IMG/VR virus record: IMGVR_UViG_3300020044_009142
Span: 1-27,677 of that record
Length of the DNA: 27,677 nt
DNA from: a virus
Taxonomy: Duplodnaviria; Caudoviricetes
Reading direction: 5' to 3' (one strand)
Below are positions 1 through 13,081 of the stretch, one piece after another. The translations under genes were made by a program, and so were the position numbers. The notes beneath the pieces were generated by a model. The model ran no database searches. It had not been told where the DNA came from and saw only the letters and a program-made list of their open reading frames with translations. Positions within the stretch are counted from its first letter, which is position 1, and every line of letters starts with the position of its first letter.

Positions 1-28
1 ACTTTTGTTTTGAAACTCAGCAACGGCA

Positions 29-3000
29 GTGATCTGTGGTGGCAGTGATTTGCCAATAACCTCTCTTTGCATATCGAAGCCGGAGAAGTTCTTCCATCCG
101 CTTTCCTTTGCTTGGAGGATTAGAAAAGAAAACAAGATTGGTTATAAGTCAACGTCTTTGGGTGATACCTTTGGGAGTATCGGCGAATTGCTGTGGGACG
201 CAGGCGTTGGTCTTGGGACAATGGTGAAGGTCGGTGTTCAAAATATAACCCAGCAGGATCCAGCGTGGGTATCCTCGCGGCTCTGGCTAGAAAAGGCTAG
301 CGGCAGTATTGTTGATAAAGCAAAAGAAAGAGACATGTTTCAAAAGCAAAAAGAAAAACTTTTAAACAAGTCGAGCGTTGCCGCAACTTCATTTGTAGAA
401 AACGCGATCAAGGCATTCTCTGAAACAGGAGCAATAGTCAATTTGGGCGCAACATGGGCATTGTCTCTTCCATCCAAAATGATGGGAGATGATGTAAAAG
501 CAACTGAGATGGTTGACCTATCCCGCCAGTTTCAAGAACGACTGCAAAAGTCAAACCAAGATGCTGCAATCGGATCCACGCTGGATGCTGTTTTTCAGAC
601 TGCGATTTATGTCCCGGAAATGGCTCGCGTAAAAGCAGAAATGCCAAAGGTTGAATTTGACCAAACCATCAAGCAAACTGGTGCGGCAGGTCAGATTTTC
701 GCAGACCCATTTGAAATGGGTAAGATCACAACAGTGATGAAATTGGCAACAAAACCAATTGTACGTCGTCTCACTCTGAACGCAGAACGAGTCATTGGAA
801 AAGCATCAGAACGTGCAGCGCGACTCGCTGAGATCGGAGTTGAGATCGCAGATGTTGAGCGTGCAAAAAACATGACTCAAAATGCTGCAGAGCTAGCAAA
901 ACGGACTGCCGATGCAGCACGCGAGCGATTTGATTTGACCGGTGACCAGAATCTTCTACGCCGTGCAAATGCAGCAGAGGACATTTTCAACAGAAGCACC
1001 TTGCAGGTAGGTAGATTTACCGACGATGGCATTCGACTCGTAGATGAATCGGCACAAATCGCAGCAGAATCTCAGAAGCTAGCATCGAGGATTCCTGTCG
1101 CAGCCGCCCAGACGTTTGAGGCGGCAGCAAAAGTCGGGCGAGACCTGAAGGCAGTTCCCTTCAAAACCTTCGCGGCAATGGTCGAACCTGTTGGTCGCGG
1201 TCTCGTTACCTTGGATGACGGTCTCGACTCGGTCTCGAAAAAGCTCGGGATCGGTGCTGCATACAACCTGATGACGTCAAAAGTTGGTCAGGCAGTTGGC
1301 TACGGTGCCGCAATCGGCATGGGGCCAATTCCGGCGGCAATCGGCGTAGCAGGAACAGTCCTGAAATCTGGTCCATTTTTGCAACGCCTCGCCGACACGT
1401 CGAGGATCATGGGCACCGAGATGGCAAAGGCCCAGAGCCAGATTCCATTTTTCCAGCGGGTGGCAAATCACTCGTCTATCTCGCCGGCGCACCGATCACT
1501 GGCGCACCTGTCGGACTTGGCAACACTCGGCGGATTCCTGCCTGACATCGCTCGCAGAGGAGTCAAGGGCACAGTCTTATCCTTCCCCGCTGACTTCGCC
1601 GCCCAATACATGTCTGACGGTGGAGAGATCAATCAGGACACTTTCAAACAGGTATTCGCAGAATCTGTGCTGATCGGCGGAAGTTCTGCAGCTCTCGGCG
1701 GGATGTTTGCCGGAACCCGGCAGCGCCACAAAGAACTGGCAGTTGGCGACGAGATCAATTTCCGAAACGAAATTACAGCGCCCGACCAGAAGCGCCTCTT
1801 CACGACGGCACCAGCCGGTGTGCGCCGGGCAGTGGGCACATTCTCTGCCGTGTTCCCATCCGTTAATATCCAATTCACAGAAAGCGGTGGAGGATTCCAC
1901 GACGACAACACAATTGGGATCGACCTGAATTCGTCCAACCCTCTGAAATACCTGCTGGCGCACGAAGTGAAGCACCTGCTAGTCCACCGCAATCAGATGC
2001 ACACGCCAATCGTGGCGATGATGCTCGGCGACGGTGAAGCTGGTGGCATCATGCGCTCGCCAGACGGCACCTTGAACCCAGAATTTGAGGCATTCGCCAG
2101 AGAGTATAACGGTCGCCAAATCTCGGCAGGCCGTGCACCTGTCTCGCTTGGCAAGATCGCCGAGGAATTCTTCGTCGAGGCCGGGGTCGATGACATGGCG
2201 CGAATCGCCGAGTCCGGCGAGCTTGGTGCCATTGCCAGCCGCACCGAGGCACGACGTATGGTCGGTCGGCTTTTCAACTCCATCTTCGACAAGAGCACGG
2301 TGCTGAAGGACTTCCACCTGCGTATCGGTGGTCTAATGGATCAAGGCGGAAAACTTGTCCAAGGAAACGGTCTGCTGGATCCGGGCATCACCCAGACGCA
2401 GGAGATGCGTAACATGACCAAGAACATGCTCAGCAGGGCAGCAGGACGGTCCGTTGGCCAGTTCCAGCCACTTGGTGCGGCAAACGCCGGAAACAAAGGA
2501 GAAGGGCCGGGAATTGACCTTCCTATCAATCCGGGCGACAACGCAATGATCGAGAAGATCGGTCCGGTCGAATTCGAGATGGAAACAGTGAACGGCCAGC
2601 GCCGGGTCGTCCGCGACAGCGCCGGAAACCCAGTCCCAGTTGATTTCAACACTCAGTTGATGCGTTCGCGCACAGGTGCCTTGATCCAAGAAGCAATCGG
2701 TGCTCGCCCATCCACTTACCAGTCTTCGCCCGGCGAGATGCGGATGAATGACGAGGGCATCTGGGAGGGATACCTTCCGCCGGATGTGCTTGAATACATC
2801 AAGCAGAAAGGCTCGCTCAACCAAGAGCAGATTCGGATGATTGAACACGTCAACAAGATGATCAAAAACTTCAAGGGTGACGTCGCGCTTGTGATCAATC
2901 ACCCGGCGACCAGTCGGAACAAGAAGGGCAAGCTCAACTACAAGACGCTGAAGGCAACTCTTAGGCAGGTTGTGCCGATCTCATGGAACCTCACCAAGGA

Positions 3001-6000
3001 CGGCAACCTGACTCTCGGGCTGATGTCTGTCACCCAACTAAAGTCCAACATCGATTCTCGGATCTCGAGCAAGATGGGTCAGAAGCTGTATCAAGGGAAC
3101 CGTGCGAAACTCATGGTCGATATCGGCAAGGTGATGGAGCTGCACCAAAAGGGTCAGCGCACCGACGCCTACTTCGACGCCGAATACGGTGCCGCCAAGA
3201 GTCAGCAACACAAGAACTTCGTCAATTCGGTCTTTGGTCTGATCACCAAAAAGCAGGGCGAGGCAAACCCGATCTTTTCTGAAGAGAACCTTCGCGGCAA
3301 CAGCGTCTACAAAACCTACCGTGCCGACCGGATTAGTCAGGCGACCAAGATGACTGGCGACAAGTATCCGTTTCAATACGACTTCGTCGTCCAGAACATG
3401 ATGCCAAACGGTCTGCCGACACTGGACGATCAAGGTCGCCCGGTCAATCGCCTTCCCGAGCCTGTCGGCGAGAAAGAAGTTGCAATCCCAGCCAGTCAGG
3501 GTAAAGAAGGGCAAGTAACCAATGGACAAACAACCAAAATACAAGCTAAACCCGTCAGCGCAGGCACTGGCGGATCGGAAACCCAAGGAGGAGGACTTCG
3601 AGGACAGGGAGGACTTTCTGGAGGCACTGAGCAGCTTCAACCACTTTATAGCCCCCGTGATTCTGGCATCCCTCTCGAGGGACTCCCAGCAACAGTAAAT
3701 ATCCCCGGATTAGGCCGGGTCACGTTTGGCCCCAATGAAACGGCACGCCAAGTTGCGGCTGATTACGCCACGTCGGTGGGAATCGATTACAACCCACCGA
3801 AGCAATATGCAAAAGTGGACGAAGCTCGGGCGACGAAAATTGCTGCCGAGTATGACAAAATGCCTCATGCTCCGAATGACCCAAAAGTAAAAGCATCATA
3901 TGATGCGATGATCAAAGAGACGCTCGCCCAGTGGGAAGAAATCAAGAAGACCGGTCTTAAGGTAGAAGCTATCCCAGCGGGAGCGCCTAACCCATACGAA
4001 TCAAGCCCAAGGTTGGCAGTAATTGATGTTAATGACAATAACCACCTGTGGTTCTTCCCGACAGAAGAGGGATTCGGAACAGTAGAAACTGCTGACATCG
4101 ACATAAGTGGGAATCCGTTGATGGCACCAACTGGCGAGATACTCAATGGGCACAAGATGCTCGCTAACGACGTGTTCCGAGTCGTGCACGATTATTTCGG
4201 ACACATCAAGGAGGGAGTAGGCTTCCGTGCGGATGGAGAAGAGAATGCATGGAGATCTCACTCTGCCATGTATTCCGATCTTGCTCGCCCGGCAATGACA
4301 GCAGAAACCCGTGGGCAAAATTCGTGGGTGAACTACGGACCATACGGAGAGCACAACCGAAAAGCAAAAGGAGACACGATCTATGCGCCGCAAAAGACAG
4401 GCATTATGCCAGACTGGGTGATGAGCGAAGGTGCAGGTGATATCAACCGCCTGCCTGAGCCAGTCAAGAAAGCCAAGAAGGAAATTGTTGAGCAGGAAGA
4501 CAAAGGAATCCAAGCACCAGTAGGAGCACTTGGAGAACTCAGAAGCAATGTGGAGATCAAAAGGATCAATCTTCCAGCAGATGCCTCAAGCGTTCCTAAA
4601 TTTGTGGCAAGAGAGAACAAGGACAGCGATTGGAAGGTGATGGAAGGACCACTTAGAATTGCCAGAGGCAACTATTTTACACCACTTCCAAACATTAAAA
4701 TCAAAAAGACTGGTGAGTTTTCAGTTCAAAATCAAAACCTAGTTCAGAATGCATTCTTGGCAAAATCCCCAACTCCAACCGACAAAAATGGGTTGCCAGA
4801 CCCGAAGGGGTTGAGAGAGCAACAGAATGCAATTCGCAATACCAATGACTCACTGGAGAAAATTGGCCTAGCTGTAAAAGACATCGAAGCTGATCCTCAA
4901 AAATTTGTGGATCCAAAAGGATACGCTGAGACAATGAAGAAAGCTGGAGTCACTGGAGACGTATTGATTCCACCATCGTCATTAAGGATGATGCTGGAGG
5001 ATCCAGATGCTTTCACCGCGCTTTTGAGTGGTGGCTATCACGGTGATAAGACGGTTGATGGCATTCGTGAAGCAGCGATGTCTGGTCTTGATTCTGTTGT
5101 CGAGATGCGGAAGTTGATTGGTGGTCGTCCTCCAGATATAGTCACTGCGATTCACCACTTGTGGGGAACTCTTTCCAAGCAACTTCCACCGCTTCAACAA
5201 GAGGCACTTTGGATGCGTATGATCACCAACAAAGAGGTGATGCAACAAATCGGTGAATCCATCAATGGAACATTTGCTCAGTCTCCAGCCCAGTGGAAGG
5301 ACACCGTAAAAAAAGCAAGGATTAACACTGCAGGCAATTACGGTAAGCTCGGTAATAACGCAACGGCAAATGCCAATAGCTTCTACTTGATGCTTTACAG
5401 GCACAATGGCAAATGGGGCGAGGTTTCGGATGTTTACAAGAACGACGACGCGGTCCAAATGCGTTATGATTTCAACACCTTGGGTCATGGAGCTACTGGA
5501 ATCAAAAACAAGGTTCAGAGCTTCATTGGGTTGACGTTCGGAATCAAAGGGAACGTTCTGGATCGGTGGAGATTTGTTGACATGTATCTTGCTGATGCGA
5601 TGAAAATCACTGGAGCAAAAACTGCTCGAGACTACTTCAAATATGAAGGTAAAGGCAAAAATGTTCCTGTAGACAAAATCGGAATCTACAAAAACTACGG
5701 AACTATCGAGAACAAATCTCCGTTATTTAGTCTGGCATTGTATTCCGCAATGGATCGAGTATCTCAGGCAGCAATCAATGCATCACCATCACTCCAAACA
5801 CTTCTTGGCAATCATGCTGATCCCGGTGGATTGCACTGGCTTTCTTGGAACGCTATCAAAAATGAAGCGGTCGGTCATTCTTCACTCGACATCACAAAGA
5901 ACTTCATCAAGGATTATGCGCCAGAAGGAAAGTATGACAATTTGACAGTTGATAATTTCTTGAAATTTGTAAATTCAACTGAAGCATTTGTTGAAGGAAC

Positions 6001-6070
6001 ATCTGGGGGCGGAGAAGAAATAACTCGCCTGACCTTGAAAAATGGAATATTTAACTATACGAAAAAATGA
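29..6070 (+). CDS. Giant modular (polyvalent-type) virion/DNA-ejection protein; 5' end uncertain, probably truncated
   Basis: 2013-aa ORF. Ala-rich helical N-half with hydrophobic Gly/Ala stretches, HEVKH zincin motif (1961-1975), two NRLPEPV repeats (3446-3466, 4445-4465), an HDYFGH module and a C-terminal HhH-like module. Lies directly upstream of the packaging genes. The first ~120 nt look like inverted coding sequence, so the GTG at 29 is doubtful. Confidence 0.75.
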   Translation: MICGGSDLPITSLCISKPEKFFHPLSFAWRIRKENKIGYKSTSLGDTFGSIGELLWDAGVGLGTMVKVGVQNITQQDPAWVSSRLWLEKASGSIVDKAKERDMFQKQKEKLLNKSSVAATSFVENAIKAFSETGAIVNLGATWALSLPSKMMGDDVKATEMVDLSRQFQERLQKSNQDAAIGSTLDAVFQTAIYVPEMARVKAEMPKVEFDQTIKQTGAAGQIFADPFEMGKITTVMKLATKPIVRRLTLNAERVIGKASERAARLAEIGVEIADVERAKNMTQNAAELAKRTADAARERFDLTGDQNLLRRANAAEDIFNRSTLQVGRFTDDGIRLVDESAQIAAESQKLASRIPVAAAQTFEAAAKVGRDLKAVPFKTFAAMVEPVGRGLVTLDDGLDSVSKKLGIGAAYNLMTSKVGQAVGYGAAIGMGPIPAAIGVAGTVLKSGPFLQRLADTSRIMGTEMAKAQSQIPFFQRVANHSSISPAHRSLAHLSDLATLGGFLPDIARRGVKGTVLSFPADFAAQYMSDGGEINQDTFKQVFAESVLIGGSSAALGGMFAGTRQRHKELAVGDEINFRNEITAPDQKRLFTTAPAGVRRAVGTFSAVFPSVNIQFTESGGGFHDDNTIGIDLNSSNPLKYLLAHEVKHLLVHRNQMHTPIVAMMLGDGEAGGIMRSPDGTLNPEFEAFAREYNGRQISAGRAPVSLGKIAEEFFVEAGVDDMARIAESGELGAIASRTEARRMVGRLFNSIFDKSTVLKDFHLRIGGLMDQGGKLVQGNGLLDPGITQTQEMRNMTKNMLSRAAGRSVGQFQPLGAANAGNKGEGPGIDLPINPGDNAMIEKIGPVEFEMETVNGQRRVVRDSAGNPVPVDFNTQLMRSRTGALIQEAIGARPSTYQSSPGEMRMNDEGIWEGYLPPDVLEYIKQKGSLNQEQIRMIEHVNKMIKNFKGDVALVINHPATSRNKKGKLNYKTLKATLRQVVPISWNLTKDGNLTLGLMSVTQLKSNIDSRISSKMGQKLYQGNRAKLMVDIGKVMELHQKGQRTDAYFDAEYGAAKSQQHKNFVNSVFGLITKKQGEANPIFSEENLRGNSVYKTYRADRISQATKMTGDKYPFQYDFVVQNMMPNGLPTLDDQGRPVNRLPEPVGEKEVAIPASQGKEGQVTNGQTTKIQAKPVSAGTGGSETQGGGLRGQGGLSGGTEQLQPLYSPRDSGIPLEGLPATVNIPGLGRVTFGPNETARQVAADYATSVGIDYNPPKQYAKVDEARATKIAAEYDKMPHAPNDPKVKASYDAMIKETLAQWEEIKKTGLKVEAIPAGAPNPYESSPRLAVIDVNDNNHLWFFPTEEGFGTVETADIDISGNPLMAPTGEILNGHKMLANDVFRVVHDYFGHIKEGVGFRADGEENAWRSHSAMYSDLARPAMTAETRGQNSWVNYGPYGEHNRKAKGDTIYAPQKTGIMPDWVMSEGAGDINRLPEPVKKAKKEIVEQEDKGIQAPVGALGELRSNVEIKRINLPADASSVPKFVARENKDSDWKVMEGPLRIARGNYFTPLPNIKIKKTGEFSVQNQNLVQNAFLAKSPTPTDKNGLPDPKGLREQQNAIRNTNDSLEKIGLAVKDIEADPQKFVDPKGYAETMKKAGVTGDVLIPPSSLRMMLEDPDAFTALLSGGYHGDKTVDGIREAAMSGLDSVVEMRKLIGGRPPDIVTAIHHLWGTLSKQLPPLQQEALWMRMITNKEVMQQIGESINGTFAQSPAQWKDTVKKARINTAGNYGKLGNNATANANSFYLMLYRHNGKWGEVSDVYKNDDAVQMRYDFNTLGHGATGIKNKVQSFIGLTFGIKGNVLDRWRFVDMYLADAMKITGAKTARDYFKYEGKGKNVPVDKIGIYKNYGTIENKSPLFSLALYSAMDRVSQAAINASPSLQTLLGNHADPGGLHWLSWNAIKNEAVGHSSLDITKNFIKDYAPEGKYDNLTVDNFLKFVNSTEAFVEGTSGGGEEITRLTLKNGIFNYTKK
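3522..3698 (+). CDS. Putative nested +1-frame small protein (58 aa, MDKQPKYKLNPSAQALADRKPKEEDFEDREDFLEALSSFNHFIAPVILASLSRDSQQQ)
   Basis: ATG 3522 to TAA 3696-3698, below the ORF-track cut-off. The host frame here is a low-complexity G/T/Q linker while the +1 frame reads as a helical, charged protein. The start context AACCAATGGACA is identical to that of the - strand gene starting at 22284. Confidence 0.55.
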   Translation: MDKQPKYKLNPSAQALADRKPKEEDFEDREDFLEALSSFNHFIAPVILASLSRDSQQQ

Positions 6071-6219
6071 ATTCATTCCCCGGAGATTTTACTGACGATA
6101 TTGATGATTCTGACGATATTATCCAATTGATGCTTGAAGCTGGAGAAAGCCAGCTTGGCAGAAAATTGACAGACAAAGAAAAGAGCGATATCATTAAGTC
6201 GATTAGAAACCCGAATTAG
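6067..6219 (+). CDS. Small acidic protein (50 aa, MNSFPGDFTDDIDDSDDIIQLMLEAGESQLGRKLTDKEKSDIIKSIRNPN); candidate inhibitor/immunity protein
   Basis: ATGA overlap with the stop of the giant ORF; TAG at 6217-6219, 2 nt before the next ATG, so it fills the gap exactly. Not in the ORF track. Confidence 0.75.
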   Translation: MNSFPGDFTDDIDDSDDIIQLMLEAGESQLGRKLTDKEKSDIIKSIRNPN

Positions 6220-6221
6220 CC

Positions 6222-6779
6222 ATGCCACGCAAACTGGAACAACCACCTGACGTCGAGCCACCACCGGAGTGGTTTGACGAGGTCCGCAAACGATCCGAAG
6301 AACTTGGCATCTCGCACAAGTGCATCGAGGCATGCGCCCCCAGGACGGCAGCCACGGCGCTCTGGATGAAGGCGCAGGGAGTCTCAAACAAGCAGATCAG
6401 CAAACGCACCGGGCTGAGCTACGGTGCCATCAACGGGCTTTCATGGCGGCACGCTGACACGCTCGAAACGAAGCGGAAGGAATTCAGCCAAAAATACGCC
6501 ATTGCCGCCCAGACGTTCACCGATCTGCTGTTTGACAAGGCCGAGCAACTCGCCGAGAACCCGGAGCAATTGGTCAACATCTCGCCGGACAAGCTGGCGC
6601 TGACTGTTGGCATCATGACCGACAAGGCTGCACAACTCTCAGGCATGGCCGGGGTCGTCATCGAGCACCGCAAGGGGGCATCGATCTCCGATGCCGCCAA
6701 GGTCATCTCTGATGCTCGTGCACGCATCGCAGCCAAGCTACGCGACGGTGCAATCGATGCGGAAATCATCAACGCATGA
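6222..6779 (+). CDS. HTH protein, probable terminase small subunit
   Basis: HTH-like segment GVSNKQISKRTGLSYGAI followed by a helical region; ATGA-coupled to the large terminase. Confidence 0.6.
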   Translation: MPRKLEQPPDVEPPPEWFDEVRKRSEELGISHKCIEACAPRTAATALWMKAQGVSNKQISKRTGLSYGAINGLSWRHADTLETKRKEFSQKYAIAAQTFTDLLFDKAEQLAENPEQLVNISPDKLALTVGIMTDKAAQLSGMAGVVIEHRKGASISDAAKVISDARARIAAKLRDGAIDAEIINA

Positions 6780-8374
6780 TCTGGCGCAAGCATCCAATCC
6801 TCGAGCCTCCGACCGACGAGGAGATCGTCGAACTCGACGAGGCGACACTGGTCGAGATTCACGCGATCTACCACGAAGCAATCGAGAACGCAGAACGTGA
6901 CCCGTATCGCTTTGGATTCCGCCTGCCGCACTGGGACAAGGCCGAGGTGCAATTGGCAGACGTCACCGAGATCGTAGCACTTGGCGGCAACCGATCCGGC
7001 AAGACGCAGTGGGGTGCCTTCACCATCGTCCGGGCGGCGCTCGAGAATCCCGGGTCGGAAATTTTCTGCTTTGCTCAGACTGCCGAGGTCAGCATCCGGC
7101 AGCAGCAGAGTGCCGTCTGGGACTGGCTTCCGGCTGAGATGCGGATGAAGCAGACGACCAGCGGCACCTACATCAGCTACACCAAGAAAAACGGATTTAC
7201 CGATTCGTCGCTGATCCTGCCCAACGGCAGCCAGATCATCTTCAAGACCTACAGTCAATACCAGAACAACCCGACGATCCTAGAAGGTGCCGAGCTTGGC
7301 AGCCGCAACCCGAAATGGCACAACGTCGGCGTCTGGCTCGACGAGTATCTGCTCGGACCGGAACTGATCAACACGCTGCGGTTTCGTATCGCAACCCGGG
7401 ACGCGAAACTGCTCCTGACGTTCACCCCCATCGATGGCTACACAGAGGTCATCAAAGAGTACCTCGACGGTGCCACCACCATCGAAAGCCGAGAAGCGGA
7501 ACTGCTGAACGGAGAACTGGTGCCATACGTGCAGCGCAGCAAGAAACGCAACGCCTCGGTGCACTACTTCCACTCACAGGACAATCCATTCGGTGGCTAC
7601 CACCGCATCAAGGAGACGCTCATGGGTCGTGGCCGGGAAGAGATCCTCATCCGAGCCTACGGGGTGCCTGTGAAGTCGCACGCGACCAAATTCCCACGCT
7701 TCAACAAGGAGGTCAACGTGGTCGATCCTGAGAAGATTCCAGACAACAACGTGACGCGCTACATGGTGCTCGACCCAGCCGGATCCAAGTCGTGGTTCAT
7801 GTGTTGGATTTCAGTGGACGCTTCCGGCACCTTCTGGGTTTACCGTGAATACCCCGGCGTCGATGTCGGCGACTGGGCTGAGTGGAAGCACGGGAAATGG
7901 ATGCCGGGCGACGGTGCGAAGGGACAGGGTCTTGGCATCCGCGACTACATCGAAATCATCAAGGATCTTGAAGGCGACGAGGAAATCTTTGAGCGTCTGA
8001 TCGATCCACGCCTCGGTGCTGCCAAATACCAATCGTCCGACGGATCGTCGTCGATCATCGAGGACCTTGCAGAGCAGGACATGGTATTCATTCCGGCACC
8101 CGGTCTGGAAATTGAGGACGGGCTGCAGGCGCTGCTTTCGAAAATGTCGTGGGACACATCAAAACCAATCGACGGCATCAACCGACCTCGGTTCTACATT
8201 TCCAACGAATGCGAAAACATCATTCATGCACTCAGCGAATACACCGGAGACGGTGGGTTGAAGGAGGCGTGGAAAGATCCTATTGACGTTCTGAGATACG
8301 CTGCTATTGCTGGCATCGATCACGTTGACAGTTCAGAAATTAACGTAACAACATATGGCACAGGTGGCTACTAA
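6776..8374 (+). CDS. terL: Terminase large subunit
   Basis: Walker A GGNRSGKT, Walker B VWLDE, coupling motif LLTFTP, RNase H-like nuclease acidic motifs (VLDPAG, IDPR, KDPIDVLRY). Confidence 0.93.
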   Translation: MIWRKHPILEPPTDEEIVELDEATLVEIHAIYHEAIENAERDPYRFGFRLPHWDKAEVQLADVTEIVALGGNRSGKTQWGAFTIVRAALENPGSEIFCFAQTAEVSIRQQQSAVWDWLPAEMRMKQTTSGTYISYTKKNGFTDSSLILPNGSQIIFKTYSQYQNNPTILEGAELGSRNPKWHNVGVWLDEYLLGPELINTLRFRIATRDAKLLLTFTPIDGYTEVIKEYLDGATTIESREAELLNGELVPYVQRSKKRNASVHYFHSQDNPFGGYHRIKETLMGRGREEILIRAYGVPVKSHATKFPRFNKEVNVVDPEKIPDNNVTRYMVLDPAGSKSWFMCWISVDASGTFWVYREYPGVDVGDWAEWKHGKWMPGDGAKGQGLGIRDYIEIIKDLEGDEEIFERLIDPRLGAAKYQSSDGSSSIIEDLAEQDMVFIPAPGLEIEDGLQALLSKMSWDTSKPIDGINRPRFYISNECENIIHALSEYTGDGGLKEAWKDPIDVLRYAAIAGIDHVDSSEINVTTYGTGGY

Positions 8375-8636
8375 ACGAAAACAAGAAGCAGAAGAAATCA
8401 TCAATAGTGTCCTTAGCAAGGAACCCATTGTTGAAAATAATGTTCCAGATGGACAAGAGCAGTTCACTGTGCGAGTCACGCGACTTGCAATGAATCGCCG
8501 ATTCGTTTATGCCGTTCTCGACGGAATGCTTATCGAAGTCTTCTATCCGCGATATCGAGAGAATTCAGTTGGCCGAATCATTACTGTCGTGAAGGCAGAT
8601 GAGATCGGTGAAAAAAAATACAAATTAGTGCAATGA
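8355..8636 (+). CDS. Hypothetical protein
   Basis: 93-aa ORF overlapping the terL stop and ATGA-coupled to the portal. Confidence 0.7.
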   Translation: MAQVATKRKQEAEEIINSVLSKEPIVENNVPDGQEQFTVRVTRLAMNRRFVYAVLDGMLIEVFYPRYRENSVGRIITVVKADEIGEKKYKLVQ

Positions 8637-10723
8637 AAGAAATTGAAGAAATGGAAGAAATGGAAGAGGAATTGCTTGAAGGAGAGCAGTTGATCTATGC
8701 GTCCGAGGAACCTGATATCGGGTCGTTAACGGGTGCTTACAACTCTACCCTTGCCGATCTCGACACCTATTTCGATACGTGTCTCAGGGGTTACAACGAC
8801 CGCAGGAACATCTGGGACGGAAAAACGCCCGATCTCAGAAAGTCAGGAGCAACTGCCTTCCCGTGGCAAGGTGCATCTGATCAGGAAGTCAACGTCATTG
8901 GCGAGCGCATCAATACCTACATTTCAATCTTCGACCAAGCACTGCAGCGCAGTCACATCAAAGCATTTCCGACGTCGATGGCATCGATGGCACGTGCCGG
9001 CGTGGTCTCGTCATTCCTCAAGTGGATGAAATCGTCCTACATTCCCGACTTCAAGAACCAGATGGAGCAAGGTGCAAACTACCTGCTCGAAAAAGGACTC
9101 ATGGTCACCTACGTAGGGTGGAAGCGTGAAAGCCGCACCTACCTGCAGCCGATGACGCTCGACGAGGTCGCGCAGCAATCTCCGGAACTGCTCGAGATCA
9201 TCCTCGACGAGACCAACGACGACATTGTGCTGAGCATGTTGCAGCAGGCATTCCCAAAACTCAGCGATAAGCGTGCGAAAAAATGCATCAAGGAACTTCG
9301 CACAACCGGAGAGACTCAGATCCCGGCACCCCGGACGTCGGTGGATTGCCCCGTAGCATACGCCTGCGCCCCCGATGGCGAGGTCATCTTCCCATCCTAC
9401 ATCTCGGACCCGCAACGGTCTCCTTGGGTATTCTGGCGCTGTTTCCTGACCGCTCAAGAACTTGAAAAGAAGGTTACCAGTGAAGGCTGGGACGAGGACT
9501 GGGTTGAAATGGCAATTGAGAACCTTCGCGGCAACGATTCCATGTTCTACGACGGTGAGAAAATCAAACGCTCCTCGATCATGCCGATTGTGGACGAGCA
9601 GCAACTGGTCATGGTCGTCTACGCTTACCAGCGCCTCATCGACGAGGAAGACGGCAGCGAGGGTATTTACTGCACCGTGTTCCACCCGGACACGGATGGC
9701 TACGCCAAGCACGAATTGCTCAACGGCATGGATGACTATCCGTTCGTCGTTACCCGGCTCAGCAACGACCAGAAGCGCATGTATGAGGTTGACAGCTTCC
9801 CGGAGATTCTCCGTGGGGCACAGATGCAGATCAAGACCGAGCGCGACTCACGCATCGACCGGGCTTCGCTGGCTACACTGCCGCCGATCATGCATCCAGC
9901 AGGTCGCCCGCCGAGCGATTGGGGTCCCGGACGCCGGGTGCCTTACCGTCGCCTCGGTGAAATTGCATTCGGTCCGGTCCCGCAAATGGATCAAGGGTCG
10001 ATGGAGATCGAATTGGCAATGAAGGTGCAGGCAGACCGTGCAGTTGGTCTCGACCTCGACAACCCGCTTTCGACGATGAAGCAGCAATTCTTCATCAACA
10101 AGTATCTCGACCACGTGCGAGACGTGCTGACGATGGCGTGGAAGCTCTACCAGCGCCTCGGCCCGGACGAGGTGTTCTTCCAAGTGACTGGCAACCCAAA
10201 TGGTCAGATCATGTCCAAGGGATCGCCAGACGAGAATTTCTCCATTGTTGTCTCATTTGATACCCAGTCGTCGGACCCGGAGGTAGCTGAGACACAACTC
10301 CGCAACATGGTGAGCCTACTGCAATTCGACCGCAATGGACGTCTGGACACAGACAAACTGCTTGAGTTTTCGGCACAAGCCATCAACCCGATGTTCGCCG
10401 ACTACGTTCTGCAGCCTGCCGAGGAAGCGCAGCAGAAGGTGATGAAGGACGTCACCGACGACATCTCGAAAATCTACGCAGGCATCGAGGTGCCAGCACG
10501 TCCAAATGGAGCACAGATCGCGATGCAGATGCTGCAGGCATACATCCAGCAACCAGACGTCGCCCAGCGTGCATCGTCGGACGAGGCGTTTGCTCAGCGG
10601 ATCCAAAAATACGCCGAGCAATACCAATTCCAGATGCAGCAGATGCAGAACGCGCAGATCGGGAAGATCGGAACTGCCCCGGCTGAGATGGGAGGAATGC
10701 AAACCCAAGGAATGCAACAATAA
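8633..10723 (+). CDS. Portal protein
   Basis: 696 aa, between terL and the scaffold/capsid genes; FPWQGASD near the N-terminus, YPFVV motif and a Q/M-rich C-terminal tail as in podovirus-type portals. Confidence 0.85.
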   Translation: MKEIEEMEEMEEELLEGEQLIYASEEPDIGSLTGAYNSTLADLDTYFDTCLRGYNDRRNIWDGKTPDLRKSGATAFPWQGASDQEVNVIGERINTYISIFDQALQRSHIKAFPTSMASMARAGVVSSFLKWMKSSYIPDFKNQMEQGANYLLEKGLMVTYVGWKRESRTYLQPMTLDEVAQQSPELLEIILDETNDDIVLSMLQQAFPKLSDKRAKKCIKELRTTGETQIPAPRTSVDCPVAYACAPDGEVIFPSYISDPQRSPWVFWRCFLTAQELEKKVTSEGWDEDWVEMAIENLRGNDSMFYDGEKIKRSSIMPIVDEQQLVMVVYAYQRLIDEEDGSEGIYCTVFHPDTDGYAKHELLNGMDDYPFVVTRLSNDQKRMYEVDSFPEILRGAQMQIKTERDSRIDRASLATLPPIMHPAGRPPSDWGPGRRVPYRRLGEIAFGPVPQMDQGSMEIELAMKVQADRAVGLDLDNPLSTMKQQFFINKYLDHVRDVLTMAWKLYQRLGPDEVFFQVTGNPNGQIMSKGSPDENFSIVVSFDTQSSDPEVAETQLRNMVSLLQFDRNGRLDTDKLLEFSAQAINPMFADYVLQPAEEAQQKVMKDVTDDISKIYAGIEVPARPNGAQIAMQMLQAYIQQPDVAQRASSDEAFAQRIQKYAEQYQFQMQQMQNAQIGKIGTAPAEMGGMQTQGMQQ

Positions 10724-10731
10724 GAAAACAC

Positions 10732-10950
10732 ATGATAACAGAGATACCAAAACCAACGCTACTGCAATCAGTAGAGGCATTATCAGACCGCGATGAATTC
10801 AAGGTGATTGTTTCATTCATTCGTGACGAGCGGGAAAGATTCTTTGCCGATCTGCGACAAGCAGTGGATCCAAACGAAGTGATGAAGATCACAGGCAGCA
10901 TTTCCACTTTAGCAGAGATATTGGAAATGCTCAGCGCAGAACCCGAGTGA
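10732..10950 (+). CDS. Small helical hypothetical protein after portal
   Basis: 72-aa ORF in the position commonly occupied by a small helical protein between portal and scaffold. Confidence 0.7.
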   Translation: MITEIPKPTLLQSVEALSDRDEFKVIVSFIRDERERFFADLRQAVDPNEVMKITGSISTLAEILEMLSAEPE

Positions 10951-10973
10951 TTTGATCTGTGCTTTCCCTTTTA

Positions 10974-11004
10974 TTGACATCGCGCCTCGAGTGTGAGATA
11001 GAAC
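10974..11004 (+). promoter_or_regulatory. Possible sigma70-type promoter for scaffold/capsid genes
   Basis: Perfect TTGACA at 10974-10979 in the largest intergenic gap of the head cluster; the -10 candidate (GATAGA or TAGAAC) is poor. Confidence 0.35.
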
Positions 11005-11038
11005 CGACACGCTAACGCCTAGCGAAAATGGTGATTTT

Positions 11039-12070
11039 ATGAATAAGCAATCCGATGCCACCGCTGGGGCAAATACACCAGTGACAGATAACATATCGTT
11101 TGAGGAACTTGTTGCTCAACGAATTGGAATGCATACCGAATCAGAAAATGATTCCGGCGATGACGACCTTGAAGAGGACGACGACCTGATCGATGACGAT
11201 CAAGAAGTCGAAGAACAAGAGGAAGAAATCCCGGAAGAAGAACCTGAAGAGGAAAGCGAAGAAATTGACTTGCTCAATCTTACGACAGAGCAAATTCAAG
11301 AATTGGCCAAAAAGGGCAAGAGTCGTCTGCTTCACCGAGTCGGTGAGTTGACTGCTCAGAAAAAAGCCCTTGAGGAACAATTGAAAAGTCAATTGGATGC
11401 CAAACCACAAGTTGAAGCTATCCCTGCAGAACAAAATCCGTTTTCAAATATTGATACGGTCGCTGACTTGCAGGTGCAGATCAAGGAGATGGAGAAGGTA
11501 GCCAAGGACACCGATCATATCTTGGATGAGCATGAGGACTACGGTTTGGATGACATCATCGTCATTGGCGACCGGGAATTCACAAAGCGTGAGATCAAGA
11601 AAGCCAACAGGAATGCCCGGGAATCACTGGTCAAATTCATTCCAGCGCAGCATGCGGAACTCGTCAAACGCGAGCAACGTGTAGCACTGGAAGATCATTT
11701 GGCCAAACTGATCCCACAGGAAATTCCTGAATTTGCCAACGAGGACTCCCCGCTGGTCAAAGAATTTCAAGCAATGATGGCAGACCCACTCGTCGCACAA
11801 GTGAGACTACGTGTCCCGGACATCGCCCCGCAACTGGCGTATCTCTTGGCCCACGCAGCAAAATCCATGCAGAGATCATCAAAGGTAGCGAATCGTGCAA
11901 AGACGACGGAACCATCCCGGTCAAAAATATCAGGGACCCCGTTTGGTGTTGGCGCAGCGAAGAGCACTCCGAAATCTGCAAAGAGGGCTGCTGATCAATT
12001 GGATCAGAAGTTTCAAAAATCTCATTCCGAATCAGATTGGATTGCTGCAAGAGTTGCACGTTTGAGCTAA
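11039..12070 (+). CDS. Capsid scaffolding protein
   Basis: Very acidic N-terminal tract, RVGELTAQKKALEEQL coiled coil and a basic C-terminus; directly upstream of the major capsid gene. Confidence 0.8.
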   Translation: MNKQSDATAGANTPVTDNISFEELVAQRIGMHTESENDSGDDDLEEDDDLIDDDQEVEEQEEEIPEEEPEEESEEIDLLNLTTEQIQELAKKGKSRLLHRVGELTAQKKALEEQLKSQLDAKPQVEAIPAEQNPFSNIDTVADLQVQIKEMEKVAKDTDHILDEHEDYGLDDIIVIGDREFTKREIKKANRNARESLVKFIPAQHAELVKREQRVALEDHLAKLIPQEIPEFANEDSPLVKEFQAMMADPLVAQVRLRVPDIAPQLAYLLAHAAKSMQRSSKVANRAKTTEPSRSKISGTPFGVGAAKSTPKSAKRAADQLDQKFQKSHSESDWIAARVARLS

Positions 12071-12088
12071 TCCTTATCAAATACCATT

Positions 12089-13081
12089 ATGGCTATTTCC
12101 AATACCTACCAACCAACCGCTCCCGCTGTAAAGTCGGGCACCGGATCCGCCGTTTCCAACCGCGAAGACCTTAGCACAGAGCTTTCGATCCTCGCTCCGG
12201 AGCAAACCCCACTCCTTAGCTTGGCATCCAAGGGTAAGGCAAACAGCACGTTCACTGAGTGGACTGTCGATATCTTGTCTGCTCCAGTCACCGCTGGTGT
12301 TGCTGAAGGTGCTGACGTCACATCGTTCGTCAACCAATTCAGCAATCGTGCTCGCCTTGGGAACTACGTGCAAACCTTCCGCGACGATTACCTCGTATCG
12401 AACCTGCAACAAGCAGTTTCGAGCGTCGGTCCTGCGGATTTCGCACAGGCTGAAGTGAAAGCAATCAAGCAGGTCAAGCGCAACGTCGAGGCAACCATCT
12501 CCGGCACTCAAGACTACACGGTCGAGAACGGTGCTGGAACTCCCTACACCATGCGCGGCCTTGGTTCTTGGATCAACAACGGCAACACTGCAATCCCTAC
12601 AGCTTACCGCACTCCGGCGGCTTCGATTGACACCTCGCTCACCGAGTCGAAACTCAACACGATCCTGTCATCCATCTTCGCCCAGAACGGTGAGATGAAT
12701 GCGCTGACTCTTGTTGCAGGCACCGCTGTTCGTCGGACGATCAGCAACTTCACCCGTGCAAACCAAGCTGCAGGCACTGACAACGTCTACACCGTCATGC
12801 AGGATGCTACCAGCAAGCAGATCACGCTTTCCGTCAGCGTCTATGACTCTGACTTTGGCATGCTCAAGATCGTCAACGCGAACCCAGCGTGCACGCTTGC
12901 CGGAACTGGTTACATCATCAATCCGAAATACCTCCAATTCAATACGCTGATCCCAATGGGATCGAAGCGCCTTGAAGACCAAGGTGGTGGTCCTCGCGGT
13001 TTCGTTGACATGACCGGAACGCTTTGCGTGAAGCACCCGGGTGCATTCGGAAAAGTGACTGGTGTTACCAATCCCGCCTAA
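12089..13081 (+). CDS. Major capsid protein (SU10/DUF5309-like, HK97 fold)
   Basis: NREDLS...TPLLS...KANSTFTEWTVD...GNYVQTF...MRGL...YDSDFG pattern; 330 aa; strongly biased codon use. Confidence 0.88.
   Translation: MAISNTYQPTAPAVKSGTGSAVSNREDLSTELSILAPEQTPLLSLASKGKANSTFTEWTVDILSAPVTAGVAEGADVTSFVNQFSNRARLGNYVQTFRDDYLVSNLQQAVSSVGPADFAQAEVKAIKQVKRNVEATISGTQDYTVENGAGTPYTMRGLGSWINNGNTAIPTAYRTPAASIDTSLTESKLNTILSSIFAQNGEMNALTLVAGTAVRRTISNFTRANQAAGTDNVYTVMQDATSKQITLSVSVYDSDFGMLKIVNANPACTLAGTGYIINPKYLQFNTLIPMGSKRLEDQGGGPRGFVDMTGTLCVKHPGAFGKVTGVTNPA

Follow-up and report, generated by a model that had tools for sequence, protein, structure and literature searches.

A large polyvalent phage protein with exchangeable modules and nested or adjacent small partner genes

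The IMG/VR record IMGVR_UViG_3300020044_009142 is a podovirus-like phage contig of 27,677 nucleotides (nt), the whole 27.7 kb of which we analysed (hereafter the window). It begins with a very large open reading frame (ORF) whose product carries an HExxH motif, two copies of a seven-residue motif and two enzyme-like modules, and two tiny ORFs lie, respectively, inside it in another frame and at its stop codon. What kind of protein is this, and why are small ORFs kept within and beside it? The initial annotation proposed an injected polyprotein with exchangeable effector cassettes, each paired with a tiny acidic partner gene. Our analysis shows that the protein consists of a conserved carrier followed by stacked, swappable modules, several of which are accompanied by a cognate small gene that lies adjacent and co-varies with the effector, as in polymorphic toxins. 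The reading that we favour, with moderate confidence, is that of an ejected polyvalent protein whose modules are swapped among phages and whose cognate miniproteins likely inhibit these modules in the producing cell.

Conserved carrier and exchangeable modules

The C-terminal part of the large protein is built of modules that differ from one relative to the next. With the core as query we find nine loci at 84–91% identity; eight of them extend past the core, and they carry six module strings besides that of the window. Cutting 23 proteins of the clade at the seven-residue motif yields 16 module clusters, 8 of which recur in new orders, for example in the strings A-B (the window), C-D, C-J, A-C-E, A-D, A-F and C-B, where A denotes the HDxxGH module, B the helix-hairpin-helix (HhH) module and C ART-PolyVal. 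The same exchanges are seen in the DNA: similarity to the window ends at position 3461 in loci L001 and L002 and at 3444 in L005, L006 and L008; at the second motif copy it ends in L003 and begins in L077 (Table 1); and in a contig of run X1 the positions 4440–6222 are swapped for 1687 other letters. A metagenome scan found one locus with a protein architecture like that of L003. The exchangeable, motif-delimited C-terminus that had been predicted is therefore borne out: the relatives' modules vary, the breakpoints lie at the motif and the C-terminus is not invariant. A conserved N-terminal carrier with variable C-terminal domains is also what characterizes polymorphic toxins.

The seven-residue delimiter occurs twice, as first noticed, and a repeated 7-mer of any kind arises in 12 of 2000 shuffles of the protein. 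The two copies in the window differ at 4 of 21 bases, all of them synonymous, and a DNA-repeat finder does not list the delimiter, which rules out a near-exact repeat at the level of DNA. In its general form the motif reads [NRSQ][YFRL][ML]PE, found in 34 distinct contexts with many synonymous codons. This diversity of codons argues that the delimiter is selected as protein; it also marks the crossover points.

The large ORF is found where it was initially placed (29–6070; 2013 amino acids, aa), although its start is artefactual, as described below. Its carrier contains a zincin-like HExxH motif (aa 645–649) with a conserved Glu downstream, both present in the window, for which Pfam gave no match. 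Neither the large protein nor its modules nor the partners gave a useful match in Pfam, NCBIfam, PADLOC or PDB sequences, and PHROGs returned a sole match for them, phrog_3170 (function unknown). The ESM Atlas gives hypothetical or LPD39-containing clusters for the core and hypothetical clusters for the HDxxGH module, which serve as leads only. The cargo, which had looked more AT-rich than the core by eye, is so by measurement: GC content and GC content at third codon positions are 0.555 and 0.69 for the core, 0.513 and 0.51 for the HDxxGH module, and 0.439 and 0.43 for the HhH cassette. AT-richness is not confined to the cargo, however, as the GC content of aa 1–250 is just 0.45.

By the sequence features tested, the large ORF is a phage polyvalent protein: it joins disparate enzymatic domains in one large protein, and it is encoded among the late or virion genes of a terminase-portal phage. 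We consider it probable, by analogy, that the protein is packaged in the virion and injected. The gene order in the relatives runs from small Gly-rich proteins through the large protein to the terminase (in L001 and L003, three small-to-medium, partly Gly-rich ORFs precede the large gene), which is also the order of the ejection-protein clusters of T7 and P22. A precedent for virion delivery is phi24B gp47, a 2811-aa polyvalent protein that is present in virions by proteomics and is proposed to be an ejection protein (10.64898/2026.04.10.717836).

Modules and their partner genes

The first module carries the HDxxGH motif (nt 4187–4204) from which it takes its name, and its structure is modelled confidently (pLDDT 90.3). 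The model has no match in a Foldseek search of the PDB, and the best rows of the VIA comparison, which include YbeY, minimal zincin and BlaR1, are weak (Z 2.1–2.6); such a lack of a solved match does not show that the fold is new. Residues H173, D174, H178 and E190 are invariant (HDxxGH being itself one of the search patterns), which suggests a zincin-like metal site; an HEXXXH variant is described by Iyer et al. 2017 (PMC5512222). The module is probably a metal-dependent hydrolase of zincin-like build. The domain is mobile in phages, where it occurs in proteins named LPD, ART-PolyVal-like and head-morphogenesis, and because of this mobility its closest match in bacterial assemblies, an Akkermansiaceae metagenome-assembled genome (63%), gives no host assignment.

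Relatives of this module are also found at a greater distance. Cluster C mycobacteriophages (e.g. Rizal gp102) encode a homologue of 31% identity, present in 199 Mycobacterium phage records, which offers a culturable route to the function of the domain. Large bacterial contigs contain stand-alone, divergent HDxxGH genes (L157 and L158 of the BD1-7 clade, L159 and L160 of Enterovibrio; the site lies just upstream of 5839–5923), and PADLOC has no match for the HDxxGH proteins. In L157 and L159 the preceding gene is clearly conserved between both, a possible chromosomal two-gene system.

A 58-aa ORF is nested in the +1 frame just ahead of the HDxxGH module. It lies where the initial annotation placed it, but the description as acidic is only mildly true (11 D/E and 8 K/R; isoelectric point, pI, 4.9). 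An iterated profile run against six-frame segments of 118 loci and the window returns 38 hits, all of them in the +1 frame relative to the HDxxGH module and none in loci without that module; 37 lie at −128 to −152 nt from it and the remaining one, in L075, at −869. Over 38 aligned codons in 25 copies, the +1 frame is better conserved than the frame of the large protein (frame 0), with identities of 0.83 versus 0.71 for 8 close copies and 0.32 versus 0.23 for 18 distant copies; none of the 25 copies has a stop in the +1 frame and 22 have stops in the +2 frame, and variation is highest at the third codon positions of the +1 frame. Over this stretch frame 0 encodes a Gly/Ser/Gln-rich linker. An in-frame ATG is present 5–36 codons ahead of an invariant Pro in 31 of 33 copies, a Shine–Dalgarno-like (SD-like) sequence in 19, and the family includes 36 small called proteins.

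Out of sample, the 58-aa family recurs at the same position in 6 of 51 bacterial-assembly loci and in two of three GenBank phages; cultured Synechococcus phage MinM2 (OQ594354.1) carries it there, unannotated, with its end near position 5880 of L171. Paraburkholderia sediminicola (L127) encodes the module by itself as a stand-alone gene, preceded by a separate partner gene that ends one base before the ATG of the module. The profile and the frame conservation together show that the nested ORF co-occurs with the HDxxGH module across diverse phages, as anticipated. Two further kinds of +1 stretch adjoin the module elsewhere: in small HDxxGH proteins of about 470–480 aa (L028–L038, L076) this upstream place is taken by a +1 ORF of another family, and in L062, L063, L065, L068, L069 and L074 a short acidic +1 stretch, possibly another partner family, stands right after the module and precedes an ART-like domain with an HFS/HYS motif.

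The HDxxGH module and the 58-aa protein are predicted to form a complex with an ipSAE of 0.88, compared with 0.00 for the best of three controls. The runs agree in at least 79% of contacts, with a partner pLDDT of at least 73; the complex-score mark was reached by 116 of 157 solved pairs versus 2 of 215 mismatched pairs, counts that apply here only approximately, as the alignments were our own. The predicted interface includes N166, R170, F185 and R186, next to the motif helix. Thus one of the module–miniprotein pairs for which complex modelling had been suggested is predicted to bind, and this model supports binding, not inhibition.

The second module had been taken for an HhH-like domain, and structure comparison of its model (pLDDT 89.8) indeed finds the fold of HhH DNA glycosylases. 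The best match is Tm1821 OGG (Z 13.0, root-mean-square deviation 3.6, 206 aligned residues, 10% identity), followed by OGG1, Endo III, ROS1 and Mag1; 23 of the 23 top rows are glycosylases or related-fold enzymes, and Foldseek gives a probability of 1.0 with an E-value of 0.047. K247 and D264 are invariant in 28 sequences of the module, and we take them, by motif position and not by residue alignment, to be placed like the catalytic pair of bifunctional glycosylases. The C-terminal modules of L002, L003 and L008 are further HhH-looking domains, two of which match DUF7178, so that several HhH subfamilies appear to rotate through the terminal slot.

The ATGA-coupled 50-aa ORF at the end of the HhH module is present as described and is acidic (pI 4.2). 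The HhH module ends the large protein in 37 loci (20 distinct), and in 12 others (10 distinct) it is internal. An acidic ORF with an ATG start stands at the stop codon in 36 of the 37 terminal loci, the other one (L113) having a partner-like +1 stretch without ATG; in all 12 internal loci a +1 ORF lies at the end of the module and frame 0 continues as a linker. An FP(A/G)DFS-type motif is found in 8 of the 10 distinct internal copies, and profile–profile comparison links the separate with the nested partners (83.5%, E 8e-6, 16 columns). A relationship between the two partner families themselves was rejected: compared with the HhH partner profile, the HDxxGH partner family reaches a probability of 1.6%. 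The proposal that the partner of an internal cassette is overprinted in the +1 frame and otherwise separate holds for the HhH module, in 12 of 12 internal loci, and for the HDxxGH module, given the layout of L127.

Partner-like ORFs are not limited to these two modules. Each of the terminal modules D, E and F is followed by acidic ORFs of 63–105 aa from a family of its own; module J has a nested acidic 47-aa ORF and module G a conserved +1 stretch. When 107 large ORFs were surveyed without bias, the alternative frame was more conserved than the host frame in 97 of 760 +1 pairs versus 2 of 557 +2 pairs, most of the 97 being the HDxxGH partner family. Among the relatives the partner gene moves with its module. 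A look through sequencing runs listed no RNA run containing this sequence, which says nothing for or against expression. From their patterns of conservation, the partners are very probably translated genes, and in view of the predicted complex they are likely to bind their modules.

Proposed inhibition in the producing cell and its alternatives

In the reading that we favour, two-gene cassettes of effector and inhibitor would be captured at the delimiter. The partner of the cassette added last would stay as a coupled downstream gene; where further modules follow, or where the partner lies upstream, the large ORF would read through the partner in another frame, and the overprinted DNA would double as a low-complexity linker of the large protein. 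The partners would be translated late from their own starts and silence the modules during virion assembly; being left behind at packaging or ejection, they would leave the modules free to act in the next cell, where the HhH module would cut bases that are modified or damaged out of the DNA of the host or of a rival phage. That binding of the partner is inhibitory is moderately likely. A wider version is tentative: stacked effector–immunity cassettes on an ejection protein might be widespread, with capture of whole toxin/inhibitor pairs and a delimiter that is both exchange hinge and release site. If so, one virion protein would deliver a self-muzzled set of effectors in varying combinations, among them a DNA glycosylase that serves as a weapon and has its own inhibitor, and an HDxxGH enzyme of a new kind.

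Several observations weigh against this reading. The initial annotation paired each module with a tiny partner, which holds for several modules but not for all modules or copies: the 58-aa family accompanies only 24 of 53 distinct viral HDxxGH contexts, 45 of 51 bacterial-assembly copies have no recognisable partner, about 7 contexts carry another +1 ORF family and the remainder, most of the distant copies included, none that is recognisable, and ART-PolyVal and several singleton modules show no notable acidic, ATG-started alternative-frame ORF. In L075 the partner (4132–4302) is about 290 codons upstream of the module with another domain between them, perhaps owing to an insertion between partner and module. 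As for the HhH partners, 2 of the 10 distinct internal copies are divergent, the similarity of nested and separate forms extends over 16 columns, and the nearest ATG of some internal partners is 20–30 codons upstream. The HExxH core was recognised correctly as a motif, yet its second His is lost in L027, L043 and L077, three of the 14 aligned relatives that cover the site. Release by cleavage at the delimiter is possible but less likely than not. Its Glu-ending three-residue motif resembles the sites of head-maturation proteases, but no prohead or head-maturation protease was identified among the 20 proteins scanned in the window, which is a partial contig.

The predicted interface also raises the question whether the miniproteins are cognate binders of another kind, such as chaperones, packaging aids or activating subunits. 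It includes none of the putative ligands H173, D174, H178 and E190 and shows no enrichment of invariant residues (10 of 48 versus 44 of 257), both of which count against inhibition; co-variation with the module, moreover, would suit any obligate binder. An obligate activator, however, is hard to square with the many intact copies of the module that have no partner, and two features resemble the toxin–immunity pairs described by Jamet et al. 2017, namely the acidic HhH partner beside a basic, DNA-acting module (pI 8.8) and the two-gene layout of L127. We therefore regard a chaperone or activator role as unlikely. Still less likely is that the partners are inhibitors serving kin immunity or superinfection exclusion, which would shield an infected or lysogenic cell from the modules that sibling phages inject. 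Partners specific to their module and cassettes that are exchanged rapidly would suit a conflict among phages, and HhH glycosylases target modified phage DNA in bacterial defence according to a recent report (10.1101/2025.10.29.685425); but the partners are encoded within a late-region gene or immediately after it, with no sign of separate early or lysogenic expression, and a scan of 20 proteins of the partial contig revealed no integrase. Such a role would be compatible with inhibition in the producing cell.

Two explanations dispense with a separate partner. Programmed +1 frameshifting could make the +1 ORFs tails of shortened forms of the large protein, for which the internal HhH partners that have no ATG near the conserved motif would be suitable. 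Most HDxxGH partners, however, have an ATG of their own and many an SD-like sequence, the family includes small called proteins, homologues occur as separate genes, in the −1 frame or ahead of a stand-alone module, and a frameshift into an upstream partner would terminate ahead of its module; we consider frameshifting very improbable. More improbable still is that the nested ORF is merely what decay has left of a two-gene cassette captured earlier, and that its sole present role is that of a linker. Its absence from about half or more of the module copies would agree with decay, but an invariably stop-free +1 frame, more conserved than frame 0 and with its variation at +1 third positions, largely refutes it.

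Known systems and genomic context

Like the polyvalent proteins of Iyer et al. 2017 (PMC5512222), the protein of the window is a large late-region protein that combines a zincin-like HExxH with disparate enzymatic domains, and ART-PolyVal modules are common to its relatives and that set. Processing of polyvalent proteins by autoproteolysis or peptidases has been proposed there; cognate partner genes, nested genes or a delimiter between modules are not described in the accessible text, and the words "overlap" and "glycosylase" are absent from the main text. MuF toxins (Jamet et al. 2017, PMC5576092) likewise consist of a virion-linked carrier with a variable C-terminal effector, and behind 89.4% of the toxin genes stands a small ORF for a putative immunity protein. 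In contrast to MuF toxins, several effectors are stacked per chain here, and those inside the chain have their partner overprinted on the upstream or the downstream side; no MuF domain was found in the 2013-aa protein by Pfam, NCBIfam or MuF-annotated PHROGs. By analogy the system appears to work like polymorphic toxin–immunity systems, yet it is not a MuF toxin.

The HhH module shares its fold with the HhH DNA glycosylases (Tm1821/OGG and the anti-phage Dag, 10.1101/2025.10.29.685425), but it is twice as long, is fused into a phage protein and has an acidic miniprotein as partner. No description of nested partner genes in polyvalent-type proteins was found in the open-access literature, subscription journals being largely outside this coverage. 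Among known arrangements, lambda Rz1 is a +1-frame gene embedded in the gene of its binding partner Rz, and type II toxin–antitoxin systems place a small partner beside the gene of an enzyme. Unlike in Rz/Rz1, the overprinted stretch is here a floppy linker in the host frame, and unlike in either system, there are several unrelated partner families and the same partner is found nested or separate. New here are the module-specific pairing, the nested/separate switch for both partners and one predicted complex.

These features suggest a rule for reading the largest unannotated genes of phages: a conserved +1 ORF beside a module would mark a likely regulated effector and a candidate inhibitor, a kind of gene that annotation misses, as in MinM2. 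They open the roles of polyvalent domains to testing, as well as the question of how the cell in which virions are made escapes being poisoned by the phage, and they offer a candidate miniprotein inhibitor of an enzyme with the HhH glycosylase fold as well as a confidently modelled HDxxGH domain without a clear solved relative. The same partner being seen both separate and nested, overlapping functional genes may arise by read-through of an existing gene.

Table 1. Positions of the features discussed (coordinates of the window)
Feature	Position	Strand	Basis or remark
Inverted fragment of an upstream gene, contig-end chimera outside the large gene	1..119	−	match to L001
Polyvalent, probably virion-ejected protein, 5'-truncated (listed as ORF 29–6070)	110..6070	+	relatives with ART-PolyVal and DUF7178 modules
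Conserved carrier region with zincin-like HExxH (1961–1975) and downstream conserved Glu (2165–2167)	110..3445	+	alignment of relatives
Delimiter motif, copy 1	3446..3466	+	DNA similarity of relatives stops here
Nested +1-frame 58-aa partner gene with purine-rich upstream sequence	3522..3698	+	profile, conservation, complex model
HDxxGH module (phrog_3170 family)	3671..4441	+	modelled confidently; no clear match among solved folds; zincin-like rows weak
Delimiter motif, copy 2, exchange boundary	4445..4465	+	similarity of L003 ends at 4459; that of L077 begins at 4460
Module with the fold of HhH DNA glycosylases; Lys (nt 5510) and Asp (nt 5561) invariant	4772..6067	+	fold match
Acidic 50-aa partner gene, coupled to the HhH module by ATGA	6067..6219	+	survey of loci, profiles
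Terminase small and large subunits, portal-like protein, SU10-type major capsid protein	6222..13081	+	context of the large ORF

The annotated GTG start of the large ORF at position 29 was rejected. Bases 1 to about 119 match L001 2706–2799 in reverse orientation (78% nt and 74% aa identity), and a contig of run X1 carries other sequence before position 110; the GTG start and the first ~27 residues, which come from this inverted piece of an upstream gene, are thus an artefact of assembly. The large protein of the relatives has roughly 90–110 extra N-terminal residues, so that the copy of the window is 5'-truncated. Downstream, the gene of the small terminase subunit begins 151 nt past the end of the large ORF, and besides the terminase, portal-like and capsid proteins the window encodes a tail protein, an endolysin, a helicase, RusA and a primase.

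Two observations concern neighbouring genes. Within the presumed ejection-gene cluster, L001 (1290–2093) and L003 (2363–3166) carry a 267-aa gene with an SGGKDS motif, which we take to be PAPS-reductase-like. In the window, a 93-aa gene (8355–8636) overlaps the end of the terminase and the start of the portal gene (8633–10723), and its tail shows as conservation in the +1 frame where the portal frame begins.

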